Shown piece by piece: positions 691-6,302 of a DNA stretch of 6,302 nucleotides. The translations under genes were made by a program, and so were the position numbers. This DNA is from a virus (Duplodnaviria > Heunggongvirae > Uroviricota > Caudoviricetes). The notes beneath the pieces are model-generated. The model was not told where the DNA came from and did no database searches. It was given only the letters and a program-made list of their open reading frames with translations. Within the stretch, counting starts at the first letter, position 1, and each line of letters begins with the position of its first letter. The DNA lies in IMG/VR virus record IMGVR_UViG_2619619127_000006; one strand, written 5' to 3'.

Positions 691-710
691 ACAGCGAGCC
701 AGAAAACTTG

Positions 711-2453
711 ATGAAATACTCTAACAGCAATCTTATTATAAAAATAATACATCTACTTTCACAAAAAAGAGATGGTCTGATTTTGCTTGATGGGAGCTGG
801 GGCACAGGAAAGACTCACTTTATCAGAAAAAAATTCCCCAAGTACTATGATAAAAACATTTTCTATTATATTTCTTTACTAGGTATTAAATCCTTATCAG
901 ATTTCAAAGCTAAAATTATAGATTGTTACTACCTGCAAGATATACAAACATTTAAATCCGGGCTCGAAAGTCTATCAGGGATAGGTAGCATTGCCAGCGG
1001 CTCACCTGCAAGTGCCAATATTATTAACAGCATGTTTAATTCTATTGGTGCAAGTGTTAGAGAAAACATTTTATCAAAACTGGATGGTATTTTTATATTG
1101 GATGATATAGAGAGAATATCCGAAAAATCATTAGTTAGTGAAATTTTGACATATTGCCATTCTCTTTATATGTCCGAGATGAACTCAAATTTAGACTTTA
1201 TTATTATTACCAATACATCAACTGAGTCTGGTTTAAAAATAGAACACAAGGAAAAACTCATTGCAGAAACACTTCATTATAATCCGCATCCAGAGGAAAT
1301 ATTGGATATAGATATAATAAATGGAAAGCTTTCCCAATTCCCACAGGAAGATAAAATTCTCTTTGAGGATATAGTAAAAAATAACAACATAGTTAACATC
1401 CGTATTTTGATGCGTATTTTGGACACAGTTACGCCATTATATGAATACGTTAAATCATATCCTCATCTTTCTTGGCGAATACCATCAACAATTCTTTTAA
1501 ACTCAATATGCTCTTTCTTCATTTTATTATTTTTGCATAATCACTCTCTTGAGGATCTTCTCAAGGACAAAGATCCAACTTTTTTATTAAACACCGAGAA
1601 ATCAAGTGATAGTGAGAGAGTGCTATGGTTAGCATTGAATAATTACAAAATAAAACCTGAGATTAAAAGGTATTATAGCGGACAAGCTTCATTAAATGAC
1701 ATATTGGATGTTTTGTTTTATGAAGCAAAACGGCTTACTATGAGAGAAATTGCAATATCAGCACGTCCAGAATTACATGAGATAAATGAAAAGGAACTTT
1801 CAAATACACTTGTCGACTTAATTTGCCGTAAGATTGACTGTAATTTCTATGAATGGATAAAAGCGTTTCAGAATTATGAGTATTTAACCACACATAAATA
1901 CCTACCAAAATCACCAATTATAACTCTAAAGTTTGTCACTTCGATTCTGAACGGATTCACTGACAATGAAGTTGCAGAATGCTTTGAGCTATACTCACTT
2001 GATAGAAAAAATAGCTTAAATAGTGGTTTTGAAGATAGCAAATTGCTGTACTCAATTTCATTTTACCGTTATGAAAGCACGATCAAAATGCGTGAACTCA
2101 ACACTATTAAGTTGCAATTAGAATTGAATGGCTGGGCATCATTCAATGCTAACCAATTAACCACTTTAGATCCATTCGGAAATTATAAGCCGCTTGAAGT
2201 ACTTGGTGTATCATTTGTAACAAAATGCGTTTTAAAGAATTGGGCAGTTAATGATATTGAGCAATTTAGTTCTTTCTTGCGTAGCAACTATCAAATCAGC
2301 AACATAAAACAATTCGCCACTAATGAAAAAAACAAACTTATTTATCTTAGTCAAAAACTTGATATTTTTTGCCTTTCCTATAAAGAAAGCTTTAAATTTG
2401 GAGCCATATACGATCTAAACAGAACAGTTAAAATTGCCATTAACAAATTATGA
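711..2453 (+). CDS. KAP-family P-loop NTPase (putative), about 580 aa; candidate accessory/defence protein
   Basis: Long uninterrupted ORF in the track (708..2453). Position 708 is TTG, immediately followed by ATG at 711, which I take as the more likely start. Walker A 'LLDGSWGTGKTHF' near the N-terminus has the GxWGxGKT form typical of KAP NTPases; Walker B 'GIFILDDIER' lies about 90 aa downstream. The remaining ~360 aa have no motif I recognise. The gene is markedly AT-rich and Ile/Asn/Lys/Tyr-rich compared with the tail genes. Confidence 0.7.
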   Translation: MKYSNSNLIIKIIHLLSQKRDGLILLDGSWGTGKTHFIRKKFPKYYDKNIFYYISLLGIKSLSDFKAKIIDCYYLQDIQTFKSGLESLSGIGSIASGSPASANIINSMFNSIGASVRENILSKLDGIFILDDIERISEKSLVSEILTYCHSLYMSEMNSNLDFIIITNTSTESGLKIEHKEKLIAETLHYNPHPEEILDIDIINGKLSQFPQEDKILFEDIVKNNNIVNIRILMRILDTVTPLYEYVKSYPHLSWRIPSTILLNSICSFFILLFLHNHSLEDLLKDKDPTFLLNTEKSSDSERVLWLALNNYKIKPEIKRYYSGQASLNDILDVLFYEAKRLTMREIAISARPELHEINEKELSNTLVDLICRKIDCNFYEWIKAFQNYEYLTTHKYLPKSPIITLKFVTSILNGFTDNEVAECFELYSLDRKNSLNSGFEDSKLLYSISFYRYESTIKMRELNTIKLQLELNGWASFNANQLTTLDPFGNYKPLEVLGVSFVTKCVLKNWAVNDIEQFSSFLRSNYQISNIKQFATNEKNKLIYLSQKLDIFCLSYKESFKFGAIYDLNRTVKIAINKL

Positions 2454-2934: not shown

Positions 2935-3234
2935 TCACCCACGATTAACTAACCGCCAGACCAGCAGACACGCCACCACCGGCACAGCAAAATCCATCAT
3001 GCTTGCCACATCCCACGCGCGTGGATCAAAACCGCCCCACCACGGCATATTCATACGCTTGCCATGCCCGAACATTTCAATCCAGCGATATTCTGCCTGG
3101 GTGTGTTCACGCGCAATGAAGAACGTACAACCGGCTATCGCTCCGTAAGCCCAGTTCCCGGTAAAAAGACCAATCAGTAGCTGCGCAGCCACAGCACAAA
3201 GAGCATGAAGGAAAGGTGTTATATCCATTTTCAT
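2935..3234 (-). CDS. Small hydrophobic (probable inner-membrane) protein of unknown function, about 97-102 aa
   Basis: Track ORF 2935..3243 begins at a TTG. In-frame ATGs at 3232-3234 and 3226-3228 follow an AGGA Shine-Dalgarno-like sequence, so the true start is probably one of these. The protein has two to three hydrophobic stretches (FLHALCAVAAQLLIGLF, AYGAIAGCTFFIA, FAVPVVACLLVW) and a Trp/Gly-rich loop (MPWWGGFDPRAW). Stop TGA at 2935-2937. No family recognised. Confidence 0.55.
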   Translation of the reverse strand: MKMDITPFLHALCAVAAQLLIGLFTGNWAYGAIAGCTFFIAREHTQAEYRWIEMFGHGKRMNMPWWGGFDPRAWDVASMMDFAVPVVACLLVWRLVNRG

Positions 3235-3243
3235 CCTACCCAA

Positions 3244-3265
3244 TAAAACGGGGCGCTCGGCCCCT
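3244..3265 (-). terminator. Putative intrinsic terminator after the 346-aa fibre gene
   Basis: GC stem GGGGC (3250-3254), loop GCTCG, GCCCC (3260-3264). Read on the minus strand it is followed by GTTTTATTG, immediately after the TAA stop at 3271-3273. The U-tract is short and interrupted, and the next gene's start lies directly after it. Confidence 0.4.
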
Positions 3266-3270
3266 TAATA

Positions 3271-4311
3271 TTATTTAGACGCAAGCGCCGCCTCAATTGC
3301 AGATAATCTTTGTCTTAATTCTGCGTTTTCTTCTTCCAGTGCTGTTATCCTGTCGTCTGACTCTCTGGCTCCCTGAACAAGCAAGCCAGTAACACCAGAA
3401 TAATCTACAGTGTAATACCGTTCACCTTCTTCTCCATCTAATCCACTCCCGCCGTCTGGATATTTCATCATAGACCCTACGGCTTCGGGGATGGCTTCCA
3501 GGGTTTCTTGTGCAATAACACCAGCGTAAGGCATACCGTTTTCTTTAAGCGTGTATGTATAGCCGTTCATTTTACGAATGCGGTCGATTGCATTATCGAT
3601 CACCTGAATATTGTCTTTCAGATCCCGGTCAGAGCCTTGATTAAATGCACTTGCATTGCACGCGCCGTTAACCGTTAATTCGTAGGTATTGCTGGTAGTT
3701 TTCTGCGCATAGAACATATAAGCGCCACCATCAACACCGACTTCATAAACAACAGGACGGCTGGAGTTGCCCCACAATTGAGCAGTAACACCAGCATAAG
3801 CGGTTCCCTGTGTGTTTAATGTCATGGTTGACCCATGATTGGCATATTTGATCTGTAATGTGTCGGTGTAATCAAATTTAATAAGCGCGTTACTTCCACG
3901 CTTGCTGTATGACATAAGGCAGTTACCCATTTTGAGGTATCCGCTGTCACCGGGAAAAATCATCGTACCGCCATAAAGGTTGGTAAAGTCCCAGCAAATG
4001 TTTGTCCCGTTATCGTTCAGGTTAAGGCGCGCCATTGCGTTACCTGGACTGTCTATCCATTTTTTGAGGTATAGTTCGCAATACGCATCCTCAACACCTG
4101 CCGTCCTGTGAGTTGAGCGGAGTTTTCTCCCAAATATAGCTCCGCTAGTTGGCAATACCTGCTGATACCATGAAGCAGACCAGTCACCAACGATTTCATC
4201 TTTGCTGTCTACATATAATTTTGTTGCGTAGCTTCCTTGATCGTTTTTTAATTTGCTAACGTCGGATTTTAGCGTTTTGATGTCATCAGGAATTACTGTC
4301 GATGTAGCCAT
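3271..4311 (-). CDS. Tail fibre / tailspike distal protein with C-terminal intramolecular chaperone (peptidase S74-like) domain, 346 aa
   Basis: ATG at 4309-4311 preceded by GAGGAAG. The C-terminal ~120 aa carry 'GSDRDLKDNIQVIDNAIDRIRKMNGYTY ... YAGVIAQETLEAIPEAV ... YTVDYSGVTGLLVQGARE ... ITALEEENAELRQRLSAIEAAL', which matches the S-D-x-x-L-K-x-N-I signature, GxIAQE core and terminal coiled coil of the autoproteolytic chaperone domain of endosialidase / T5 L-shaped fibre type proteins. Codon usage matches the neighbouring tail genes. Confidence 0.8.
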   Translation of the reverse strand: MATSTVIPDDIKTLKSDVSKLKNDQGSYATKLYVDSKDEIVGDWSASWYQQVLPTSGAIFGRKLRSTHRTAGVEDAYCELYLKKWIDSPGNAMARLNLNDNGTNICWDFTNLYGGTMIFPGDSGYLKMGNCLMSYSKRGSNALIKFDYTDTLQIKYANHGSTMTLNTQGTAYAGVTAQLWGNSSRPVVYEVGVDGGAYMFYAQKTTSNTYELTVNGACNASAFNQGSDRDLKDNIQVIDNAIDRIRKMNGYTYTLKENGMPYAGVIAQETLEAIPEAVGSMMKYPDGGSGLDGEEGERYYTVDYSGVTGLLVQGARESDDRITALEEENAELRQRLSAIEAALASK

Positions 4312-4320
4312 TTTTCTTCC

Positions 4321-4602
4321 TCACATCCAGCCACGAAGTTGATGCTCAACAGCAACCACGTATTCATCGAATAATGACGATATTTGCGAATCATTAATGA
4401 TGCGCACGTTTACAAAATATCCGTCTTCCTTAACACATACCGGTTCGCCATCTTCAGTCAGTTCTCCGGTTTCTTTGTACACGTTACCTATCACGTCAAT
4501 AAGAATATCATCCTGCATCGACTCGTCATCATAATAGCCAGTGCTATCCATAAAGGCCGAAAAGTCGGCCCTGTCGGCAAATTTGAGTGTTAAATCTTTC
4601 AT
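4321..4602 (-). CDS. Small acidic protein, 93 aa, translationally coupled to the tail fibre gene; possible fibre adaptor or assembly factor
   Basis: ATG at 4600-4602 overlaps the fibre gene's TAA stop (4602-4604) by one base. Its own TGA stop (4321-4323) overlaps the Shine-Dalgarno of the next gene. Asp/Glu-rich; no similarity to lambda Tfa that I can recognise. Function is inferred from position only. Confidence 0.55.
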   Translation of the reverse strand: MKDLTLKFADRADFSAFMDSTGYYDDESMQDDILIDVIGNVYKETGELTEDGEPVCVKEDGYFVNVRIINDSQISSLFDEYVVAVEHQLRGWM

Positions 4603-6302
4603 TAGATTGACTCCCCCACCTGAGCATCAGTCAATGCCTTGTGCCATATTCTGAAATTCCTGACATGACCAAATAAATGACGTAACCCGGCTGTAGTCTG
4701 GCCTCCAATACGGATAATTGCGGTGTTCTGAATACAGGACCATGTGGTTTTTGTTTCGCTGGATATATGCCCGTTACTTACTGAGCACGTAGACTGCTCT
4801 GACTTTACACGCATCCCCATAACCATTTTTTCAAGCGATGCGTTTTCGTTTACCCGTCTGTTAGCTCCTCCAATATCGCAATAAGGAAATCCGTCGTAAT
4901 CTGTTGAACGACCGAAGCCAAGAATAATAGCCGCTCCGGTTTGATGACCGCCGGTATCAAAAACACGTGGCGCTGCATTTGGCGTTTTATACCAGTTCTT
5001 ATGTACCTCACAAAGAACCGTAAAAGGAAGATTATAAAGATTATTCTTAATTGGAACTGTAACTATATCGCTTGCGCGGGTCGCCGCCGTCGCTCCTGAT
5101 ATAATAAAAGATGATACACAAGGCCCATCTTCTACTTGTGGGGTGGCCAGATAAATATAGTCACCAGATACGGTTGCCCCGCTCTGCTTAGGAGAATACT
5201 GTATCTGAGAGCCTATTTTTAACTCCCCATCAATTGCCTGAATTGTTGCCTCTGCAAAAATCCATCCGGTAGCTTCGTCCTTTCTGACTCTCGCTGTGAT
5301 CCTTGAGGCAGCACCGCCTGTCATATTAATTTCAAGCGTTTGTGTATCAATATACGCATCACCAAGAAAAGTTGTTGCGCTACCGTCATATTTATCAAAC
5401 CGGATACGCAACCTTACCTGCAGTTCTGTTTTAAAACGACATGAGGTTGTCACGTGTTTATTATCGCCTGAGACATCAACTGACTTTGTTGCAGCAATTG
5501 ATGCCATATTAATGGCTGAGGTTTGCCCAATCAGAGAATCGTTACAGACAAACTTTCCATAGGTAAAACCAAAACTATCCGTCCCGGTTTCGGGAACATC
5601 CATATTTGACGATCGCCCCCAACTGGCAGGGCTTTCCGAATTGAGCATGTAGTTTGTTCTTTGCCCCTCAATAAGCAGGCCATCACGTTCAAATCGTGGC
5701 TCGTCAATGGCAGCCTCTGTCAGCACACCAGATTTGTTAATATAGGTTGCTTTCGATGCACGTTTAAACTTAACAATCTTGTCGCCAGGCATCGTTATTT
5801 CATCGTCACCAATAACAATTTTTTTATATGATGGCGAAAAGCCCGTAATCATATCCAGCGAATCGTTAAATGGTATCCACACATCAGGCAGCGGCTGTAA
5901 GACATATTTATACGGCTCCGCAGCCTGGCTTGCGTACTCTCTGGCTGCATCTTCGCTTGCTTTAGCTGCCGTCTGGCTTGCTGCCGATGCTTTCGCTGAG
6001 TTCGCAGCCGCTGTTTCGCTCACCTTTGCGTTGGTTTCACTGGTTTTTGCTGCTTTTTGACTGTTAGCTGATGCAGTAGCAGAAGCAGCCGCCGCGCTTG
6101 CAGAACTGGCTGCGGCACTCTCGCTTTGGGCCGCTGCATCCTGACTGCTTTTCGCCGCAGTTTCACTGGCTTTGGCATTCGTTTCGCTGGTCTTCGCTGC
6201 CGTCTGGCTGGACTTTGCGTTAGTTTCACTCGTCTTCGCAGCTTTCTGGCTGTTAGCCGCAGCAGTTGCTGATCCAGCTGCTGAAGTCGCAGAACCGGCT
6301 GC
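4602..6302 (-). CDS. Side tail fibre protein (Stf-like), 5'-partial; N-terminus lies beyond the window edge
   Basis: The track's 473-aa ORF starts at a GTG (6021-6023). Translating the same minus frame by hand from 6302 downward gives an uninterrupted 'AAGSATSAGSATAAANSQKAAKTSETNAKSSQTAAKTSETNAKASETAAKSSQDAAAQSESAAA...NSQKAAKTSETNAK' run with no stop, continuous with 'SETAAANSAKASAASQTAAKASEDAAREYASQAAEPYKY...'. These 'AAKTSETNAK' repeats are characteristic of lambda Stf and the related enterobacterial prophage side tail fibres. The C-terminal ~440 aa are Gly/Thr/Ser-rich, consistent with a fibre shaft. Confidence 0.85.
   Translation of the reverse strand, partial: AAGSATSAAGSATAAANSQKAAKTSETNAKSSQTAAKTSETNAKASETAAKSSQDAAAQSESAAASSASAAAASATASANSQKAAKTSETNAKVSETAAANSAKASAASQTAAKASEDAAREYASQAAEPYKYVLQPLPDVWIPFNDSLDMITGFSPSYKKIVIGDDEITMPGDKIVKFKRASKATYINKSGVLTEAAIDEPRFERDGLLIEGQRTNYMLNSESPASWGRSSNMDVPETGTDSFGFTYGKFVCNDSLIGQTSAINMASIAATKSVDVSGDNKHVTTSCRFKTELQVRLRIRFDKYDGSATTFLGDAYIDTQTLEINMTGGAASRITARVRKDEATGWIFAEATIQAIDGELKIGSQIQYSPKQSGATVSGDYIYLATPQVEDGPCVSSFIISGATAATRASDIVTVPIKNNLYNLPFTVLCEVHKNWYKTPNAAPRVFDTGGHQTGAAIILGFGRSTDYDGFPYCDIGGANRRVNENASLEKMVMGMRVKSEQSTCSVSNGHISSETKTTWSCIQNTAIIRIGGQTTAGLRHLFGHVRNFRIWHKALTDAQVGESI
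5940..6302 (-). repeat. Imperfect tandem coding repeats inside the tail fibre gene
   Basis: Nucleotide blocks recur with variation, e.g. 'tttcactggtttttgctgctttttgactgttagc' near 6036-6068 against 'tttcactcgtcttcgcagctttctggctgttagc' near 6222-6254, and 'gctgccgtctggct' at 5966-5979 and 6197-6210. They correspond to the AAKTSETNAK / AAKSSQ peptide repeats. Confidence 0.6.

Follow-up and report, generated by a model that had tools for sequence, protein, structure and literature searches.

The window analyzed here is a 6,302-nucleotide (nt) stretch of DNA from IMG/VR virus record IMGVR_UViG_2619619127_000006 (Caudoviricetes), and its subject is a side tail fiber locus in which an Stf-like fiber gene is followed by an acidic open reading frame (ORF) of 93 amino acids (aa) and by a separate 346-aa fiber protein. 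The window is 100% identical to positions 1894324-1900625 of Escherichia coli CNR65D6 (NZ_OU701452.1), where it forms the right end of a lambdoid prophage adjoining thrS. The tail genes of this prophage run along the minus strand in the order tape measure, L, K, I, J, lom, a 791-aa Stf and three small or medium genes, beyond which lie an AT-rich stretch with a plus-strand P-loop nucleoside triphosphatase (NTPase) gene and then thrS (Table 1). The RefSeq product name of the 791-aa Stf is 'prophage tail fiber N-terminal domain-containing protein', and the four genes of the locus fall into PHROG families 1419 (Stf, tail), 1361 (93-aa protein, unknown), 4563 (346-aa protein, tail fiber) and 1443 (97-aa protein, unknown). 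The Stf-like gene and the two ORFs behind it, all on the minus strand, lie at the positions that an initial annotation had given for them; that annotation described a shaft gene, an acidic ORF that may link shaft to tip, and a modular receptor-binding tip.

Table 1. Features of the fiber locus and of the neighboring genes in the 6,302-nt window.
Feature	Position	Strand	Details
stf, 3' two-thirds	4602..6302	-	full gene 791 aa, runs past the window
Ala-rich coiled-coil shaft, then ~430-aa globular C-terminal region of Stf	shaft about 6302-5900	-	translation
Hypervariable cassette 1, in the Stf C-terminal region (Stf residues ~441-760)	4700..5650	-	
Conserved junction block: last ~30 stf codons, 93-aa gene and first ~15 codons of the 346-aa gene	4265..4690	-	
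93-aa acidic protein, PHROG 1361	4321..4602	-	translationally coupled to stf
346-aa short tail fiber	3271..4311	-	PF13884 E=6.6e-14; phrog_4563 E=6e-214; PDB 6F45 alignment
Terminator-like GC hairpin and T run, directly 3' of the 346-aa gene	3250..3264	-	consensus match only
97-aa membrane protein with two transmembrane segments, PHROG 1443	2935..3228	-	RefSeq CDS; phrog_1443 E=6.8e-58
581-aa KAP-family P-loop NTPase	708-2453	+	Pfam KAP_NTPase E=8.4e-7

The Stf reading frame enters from beyond position 6302 and closes with a TAA stop codon at 4604-4602. The N-terminus of the full 791-aa product is the lambda Stf anchor, as judged by its matches to the Pfam family phage_tail_N (PF08400, E=5.9e-67) and to the N-terminus of the lambda tail fiber (PDB 9E7M, 'tail fiber protein', E=1.4e-49), and in the translation this anchor is followed by an alanine (Ala)-rich repeat shaft. 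The name 'shaft gene' given to it in the initial annotation is nevertheless too narrow, because the protein ends in about 430 residues of globular, non-fibrous sequence that start at 'QPLPDVWIPFNDSLDM' and represent a conserved type of C-terminal region ('PDVWIPFNDSLDM...RNFRIWHK'). This region matches the NCBIfam model GTA_spike_fiber (NF048003; 50.1 bits versus a cut-off of 36), and a profile built from seven homologs matches the head-spike fiber Rcc01080 of the Rhodobacter capsulatus gene transfer agent (RcGTA; PDB 6TB9 and related entries, E=3.9e-14) in an alignment that covers residues 43-289 of the region. The last ~140 residues of Stf match the concanavalin A-like (ConA-like) Laminin_G_3 family in all seven homologs (best E=4.6e-9); the score of the window Stf itself with this model is 17 bits, below the cut-off of 27.6.

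Alignment of 63 prophage alleles shows >80-90% conservation in Stf residues 1-440 and 761-791 and a fall in column identity from >0.9 to 0.45-0.7 in residues 441-760, a variable region that divides into 12 clusters at 85% identity; at the DNA level, 4700-5650 aligns in about half of 80 loci. RcGTA head spikes bind capsule polysaccharide. With its hypervariability and its Rcc01080-like and ConA-like lectin homology, this C-terminal region probably makes Stf itself a receptor-binding protein, one that would bind a surface glycan.

The 93-aa ORF opens with an ATG whose A is also the last base of the Stf stop codon (TAATG), and a TAATG or ATGA coupling of this gene to stf is preserved in all loci. 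Its product has an isoelectric point (pI) of 4.05, with 21 acidic residues (D+E) versus seven basic ones (K+R). Searches of Pfam, NCBIfam and PDB returned no match to Tfa, Caudo_TAP or another chaperone family, nor a relative of any other kind, and PADLOC gave no match either. The ORF is intact in all 80 related IMG/VR prophage loci, and the ratio of nonsynonymous to synonymous polymorphism (pN/pS) is 0.25 among 39 alleles. An AlphaFold2 (AF2) prediction with 52 diverse homologs gave a confidently predicted small alpha/beta fold (pLDDT, the predicted score in the local distance difference test, 85.5) for which fold comparison found no informative relatives; the C-terminal tail contains the invariant residues R90 and W92, yet it is poorly modeled.

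A profile search of 1.84 billion representatives recovered only 106 clusters of the 93-aa family (50% identity), nearly all of them stand-alone proteins of ~90-100 aa. Giant PKD-repeat, TPR and Bacillus-toxin-like proteins also appeared as candidate distant relatives and are probably compositional or repeat artifacts; the PKD-type matches extend over multiple stretches of proteins of 1300-2700 aa (P0310, P0314, P0366 and similar) with E values as low as 1e-15, and they were treated as artifacts because the 93-aa model is alpha/beta and does not have the all-beta PKD fold. One further match, a 193-aa protein from a metagenome contig (P0267), joins an ev243-type 92-aa protein in frame to the 97-aa membrane protein, either through a sequencing or frameshift artifact or as a natural fusion. 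The 93-aa and 346-aa ORFs of the window share a reading frame and are separated by TGA GGA AGA AAA (4311-4323), so that a read-through fusion of the two was considered and rejected: the spacer is conserved as the site of a good Shine-Dalgarno sequence, and no natural 93-346 fusion was found among the longer-than-usual members of the family that were inspected. In the loci examined, no family member was found away from a fiber of this kind, and no discussion of a small coupled ORF of the 93-aa type was found in the searchable literature on these fibers.

Translation of the 346-aa ORF begins 9 nt past the TGA of the 93-aa gene, behind a GAGGA Shine-Dalgarno sequence. Three parts can be told apart in the protein: an N-terminal stretch with a putative docking motif and a helix (residues 1-29), a variable body rich in beta structure (~40-226) and an S74 chaperone (227-346). 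No anchor domain was recognizable in the Pfam scan. The match to Pfam Peptidase_S74 (PF13884; 52.4 bits versus a cut-off of 22) covers residues 227-278 and includes the sequence GSDRDLKDNI (226-235), within which the S-D-x-x-x-K motif reads S227-D-R-D-L-K232. Residues S227, D228, R229, L231 and K232 hardly vary across 43 homologs, residues 214-331 align to PDB 6F45 with the motif opposite SDRRIKKDI, and AF2 predicts a C-terminal helix at 304-345 (pLDDT 79-88). The S/K pair of this motif is presumably the counterpart of the endosialidase catalytic dyad, and self-cleavage of the 346-aa protein at S227 is predicted. The body and S74 region also match the C-terminal ends of longer fibers (phrog_6578, 1210 aa; phrog_5668, 1567 aa).

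The nature of the third gene was surveyed in the 80 IMG/VR prophage loci that contain a window-type 93-aa gene. It starts 9 nt after the 93-aa stop codon in all 80, and encodes an intact S74 protein of ~346 aa in 40 loci and an intact protein of ~234 aa (227-241 aa) in 26; it is disrupted in five, cut by a contig end in seven, and lies on contigs without downstream sequence in the other two. The 234-aa form is also an S74 protein (E=4.6e-6, above the Pfam cut-off), and the two forms have only their first ~20-30 residues in common (MATSTVIPxDIxTLKxDVSK). The same motif, in the general form TxT[VN]IPxDIxxLK, stands at the N-terminus of the third-gene products of tunus, VogelGryff, KarlBarth, IrisVonRoten, AKFV33 and BRET, and with the exception of the split KarlBarth genes every third-gene product tested had an S74 match above the Pfam cut-off. 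At the five prophage loci with a broken S74 gene, the split or truncated products are of 90+254 (L019), 189+148 (L039), 323 (L051), 194+148 (L072) and 299 aa (L080), and the 93-aa gene is intact at all five; of the two fibers, the second appears to be the easier one for a resident prophage to lose.

These results bear out several elements of the initial annotation: Stf is overlapped by an acidic ORF that does not resemble Tfa, the frame of this ORF is conserved in homologous loci, the 346-aa protein has an S74-type C-terminus that ends in a long helix, and the tip is modular and swappable, in that its first ~15-30 residues are kept and the 346/234-aa bodies reassort against the Stf C-terminal types.

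The DNA of the 80 loci is a mosaic with two variable cassettes (5650-4700 and 4265-3245) that are bounded by three conserved linkers, namely the start of the Stf C-terminal region, the stretch 4690-4265 and the 97-aa gene. The middle linker aligns in all 80 loci with a mean nucleotide identity of 0.84-0.98, and the clusters of the Stf variable region reassort against those of gene 3. The mosaic shows that the two putative receptor-binding cassettes are exchanged independently by recombination at the three linkers. They flank a constant 93-aa junction, so that 3271-4602 does not move as one unit, a question that the initial annotation had raised.

Exchange of this module also appears to cross the boundary between phage lifestyles. 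The virulent Nonagvirus vB_EcoS_ESCO3 (Queuovirinae) has 2.55 kb in common with window positions 3343-5897 at 95.8% nucleotide identity, a segment that takes in the Stf C-terminal region together with the 93-aa and S74 genes. This likeness points to recent transfer of the whole distal fiber module between temperate and virulent phages, and, given DNA that is 96% identical to that of a virulent phage, the locus may be regarded as a live route of host-range exchange between prophages and lytic phages.

Within E. coli and its phages the arrangement is common. The same four genes are present at 96-97% nucleotide identity in Tritos, HannyBb, PhiR63_1 and 2G7b, and in a survey of 5426 complete E. 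coli genomes at the megablast level the 93-aa gene was found in 988, roughly a fifth, and the body of the S74 gene in 706. More distant 93-aa homologs (35-54% identical) directly follow a fiber gene with the same C-terminal region in lambdoid phages (phage 21, ev243 and the plasmid-prophage PhiR41_1), Drexlerviridae (the T1-like tunus), Dhillonvirus (KarlBarth), Queuovirinae (VogelGryff, BRET), T5-like phages (IrisVonRoten gp23, AKFV33 ORF136) and rV5-like myoviruses (JeffSchatz), and in most of these phages the small ORF overlaps the stop codon of the fiber gene. Even C-terminal regions that are just ~35% identical to that of the window have an 88-aa family member behind them. In the five phage groups that carry a third gene it lies directly after the 93-aa-type gene in every locus, with a gap of about 10 nt in most virulent phages and an overlap in VogelGryff. 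For this survey the informative IMG/VR scans were those seeded with the phage 21 and IrisVonRoten homologs, and a scan with the family alignment returned only close relatives again. Records labeled as 'Campylobacter phage' (MG065692, MG065676, MG065635) and 'Listeria phage' (OR848352, OR849447) contain E. coli-type fiber loci whose nucleotide identity to the window reaches ~80%, and look like mislabeled or contaminated entries.

When these observations are combined, the locus probably encodes a two-component side (lateral) tail fiber of a lambdoid prophage, a proposal in which we place reasonable though not high confidence. By homology, the lambda-type N-terminal domain would hold Stf trimers at the tail tip, from which they would extend via the Ala-rich coiled coil, and each chain would end in an Rcc01080-like domain with a ConA-like lectin domain behind it, both candidates for glycan binding. 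The 93-aa protein, made by translational coupling with Stf, would most likely be a specialized partner for the ends of the Stf C-terminal region, which are conserved, and act as an assembly factor or cap with a Tfa-like role but without Tfa kinship, as its co-occurrence with that region suggests. The 346-aa protein would trimerize via its C-terminal S74 intramolecular chaperone (IMC), which may then cut itself off at S227 by means of the S227/K232 dyad and leave a short fiber of ~226 residues. The N-terminal peptide of this short fiber, MATSTVIPxDIxxLK, could attach to Stf at its distal end, whether or not the 93-aa protein takes part, and so provide the particle with a second receptor specificity. 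Docking on the distal end of Stf is the simplest reading of the motif because the phages with a third gene differ in their tail tips and have the Stf C-terminal region and the 93-aa protein in common.

Several points weigh against parts of this proposal. We infer the seat of the 346-aa fiber on Stf from genes, and glycan binding and self-cleavage from homology, and the AF2 monomer model of the 346-aa protein is poor overall (pLDDT 59.5), too low a value for a fold search of its variable body. For the 93-aa protein the part of assembly partner is the most likely one, as judged by position and co-occurrence, but the protein has no likeness to known chaperones. It is also at least 92% identical within E. 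coli prophages while the Stf cassette falls to 40% identity, so what it recognizes cannot be the variable stretch of that Stf region. Lastly, a third gene accompanies every window-type 93-aa allele but no phage-21-type allele, which is what an adaptor role would predict as well.

Such an adaptor role is the alternative that calls for the closest comparison. It holds that the 93-aa protein is a virion adaptor or hinge, with a role like that of T4 gp35, that sits on the C-terminal ~30 residues of Stf and presents a docking site to the S74 fiber, and we regard it as possible but doubtful. It would account for the single block, 84-98% identical and with variable sequence on both flanks, that is made up of the end of Stf, the 93-aa gene and the opening ~15 codons of gene 3, for the presence of a third gene behind the window-type allele in 80 of 80 loci (disrupted and contig-cut copies included), and for a 93-aa tail that is conserved and poorly modeled in the monomer, as might be the case for a binding peptide. 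Pairwise identity of the 93-aa protein is also more closely correlated with that of the last 45 aa of Stf (mirror-tree r of 0.58-0.72) and of the 25 residues that open gene 3 (0.79) than with that of the mid-part of the Stf C-terminal region (0.29-0.48). However, physical linkage within a recombining mosaic would produce a conserved block and correlations of this kind just as well; the mirror-tree values are compatible with interaction and plain linkage alike and were not used to decide between them. In addition, the published IrisVonRoten models put gp24 on gp22 without discussion of gp23 (PMC11990801). The adaptor role is most directly opposed by loci of the phage 21 type (about 50 in IMG/VR, plus phage 21, ev243 and PhiR41_1), in which Stf is followed by a 92-aa ORF and the 97-aa membrane protein without a third gene. 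There is nothing to link at these loci, yet the 92-aa ORF is intact in 48 of 50 (pN/pS 0.34), and family members are present in ev243 and PhiR41_1. Purifying selection on this ORF where no third gene exists implies that its core function is tied to the Stf C-terminal region, the domain with which the family tracks, so that joining shaft to tip, as the initial annotation had suggested, finds no support as the defining role. It can be suggested with caution, as one tentative possibility, that the 93-aa family (PHROG 1361) constitutes a new class of tail-fiber accessory proteins, which would remain at the far end of lectin-tipped lateral fibers as a universal socket for S74 fibers with TxTxIPxDIxxLK. 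If true, this socket would be a standard connector for lambdoid, T1-like, Dhillonvirus, Queuovirinae and T5-like phages, through which tips move between temperate and virulent phages.

Two other explanations depart further from a two-component fiber. The 346-aa protein might be an independent fiber on the tail tip, tail tube or head, or the remnant of a longer fiber, with no link to Stf; its likeness to the ends of much longer fibers (phrog_6578 and phrog_5668), the terminator-like hairpin that closes the unit and the disruption of five of the 80 prophage copies, as if the gene were dispensable, would agree with this. We nonetheless consider it improbable, as the protein lacks a recognizable anchor domain and the third gene always lies directly behind a 93-aa-type gene in five phage groups, and because phages whose tail tips are unrelated have this N-terminal motif in common, which means that the common partner must be encoded at the locus. 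It is also conceivable that the 93-aa protein acts outside fiber biology, for example as an acidic anti-defense protein, DNA mimic or regulator that rides in the late operon, given that it is very acidic, matches no structural-protein family and has a fold without informative relatives. Its strict adjacency to one fiber C-terminal domain in at least six phage groups, temperate and virulent phages alike, the stop-codon overlap with the fiber gene in most of these groups, the lack of a PADLOC match and its absence from any other setting in the loci examined make this very improbable indeed. The two-component side fiber, with the 93-aa protein as a partner of Stf, remains the reading that we favor.

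Two neighboring genes complete the prophage end. The 97-aa membrane protein, the phage 21 homolog of which is annotated with two transmembrane domains, ends nearly all lambdoid loci at 90-100% identity, with or without a third gene, is absent from the virulent-phage loci examined, and sits past the terminator-like hairpin (3250-3264); it may have a function that is expressed in the lysogen, such as exclusion or receptor masking. The 581-aa KAP NTPase gene lies between the fiber locus and thrS within an AT-rich stretch (~600-2850; GC 0.30-0.35), and its product matches the PADLOC candidate defense family PDC-S49 (E=7e-16) and phrog_4740. Its low GC content and opposite orientation suggest that it is a moron or defense cargo gene at the prophage end.

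Side or lateral fibers decide which O-antigen or capsule types a siphophage gets past, so the organization described here is of practical as well as biological relevance. The three linkers and the docking motif would be useful for building chimeric fibers for phage therapy or for lambda-based delivery particles, and the transplanting of such fibers hinges on whether the 93-aa protein is needed for folding, for attachment of the second fiber, or for both. A preprint on engineering of lambda Stf (Eligo/Bikard) was considered as a precedent and set aside, as it covers lambda-P2 chimeras only.

The closest known systems are those of the T5-like phages IrisVonRoten (Bas32; gp22-23-24) and AKFV33 (ORF137-136-135), where, as in the window, a proximal fiber gene is followed by an ORF of ~90 aa and by a distal S74 fiber. 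The small ORF overlaps the fiber gene by its stop and start codons in IrisVonRoten and is adjacent to it in AKFV33. Over the full 424 aa the Stf C-terminal region of the window is 63% identical to that of IrisVonRoten gp22 and 36% identical to that of AKFV33; the 93-aa protein is 38% identical to gp23, and the profile of its family detects both gp23 (E=2.6e-48) and ORF136 (E=2.7e-17). The third genes of both phages have the N-terminal motif and the S74 domain of the window protein. The AKFV33 fiber has been proposed to consist of two proteins, ORF137 and ORF135, the former of which is found in virions (Niu et al. 2012, PMC3326045), and an AlphaFold-Multimer model docks IrisVonRoten gp24, which has an IMC domain, on a gp22 that ends in a 'galectin-like' domain (BASEL 2025, PMC11990801). 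Short coiled-coil fibers with T5-like tips and IMC domains are also described for JakobBernoulli and RuthEpting (PMC11990801), and the lateral fibers of small siphoviruses are made of one, two or more proteins (BASEL 2021, PMC8594841). The window differs from these T5-like phages in that its proximal fiber has a lambda Stf anchor instead of a T5 pb1/LtfA-type N-terminus and LtfC collar, that its distal fiber is of 346 aa as opposed to 557-574 aa and is without the gp12-like first receptor-binding domain of the 'T-shaped' fibers, and that the phage is temperate, with the 97-aa membrane protein behind the locus.

Other well-studied fibers share individual features with this locus. In DT57C and DT571/2 the branched lateral tail fiber (LTF) of LtfA and LtfB likewise combines two separate receptor-binding proteins, the second of which is attached via the first, and confers dual O-antigen specificity (PMC4728585, PMC10713586), but the reports on these fibers mention no small ORF of the 93-aa family coupled to a fiber gene. 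The LtfC of DT57C was considered as an equivalent of the 93-aa protein and rejected, as it is a 140-aa collar protein encoded upstream of LtfA (PMC10713586); the IrisVonRoten counterpart of LtfC is gp21. The S74 domains of endosialidases and of the T5 L-shaped fiber have the same PF13884 match, S-D-x-x-x-K motif, C-terminal site and helix as the window protein, where the domain is found on a very small stand-alone fiber without an anchor domain and self-cleavage is a prediction only. RcGTA Rcc01080 (PDB 6TB9, 6TBA) is located on the capsid, whereas the related domain of the window would lie at the end of a long tail fiber and is followed by a lectin domain.

With lambda stf-tfa the locus shares its site after J and lom, the N-terminal anchor, the Ala-rich shaft and a small gene behind the fiber gene. 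The tip of lambda Stf is unrelated to the Rcc01080-like and lectin-containing C-terminal part of the window protein, the small gene of the window is not Tfa (no Caudo_TAP or Tfa match, and another fold), and the S74 fiber gene is additional to the lambda set. The initial annotation had called the arrangement unlike that of lambda, which is correct as regards the missing Tfa homolog, but the layout as such is common and has been described in part before (PMC3326045, PMC11990801). Loci of the phage 21 and ev243 type are closer still, with 71% identity to the window in the Stf C-terminal region, 54% in the 93-aa homolog and 94% in the membrane protein, so that the window corresponds to a phage-21-type arrangement with an inserted S74 fiber gene. 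In this way, the locus is an ordinary, widespread lambdoid version of a known two-component lateral fiber, and the 93-aa family is its remaining point of interest.

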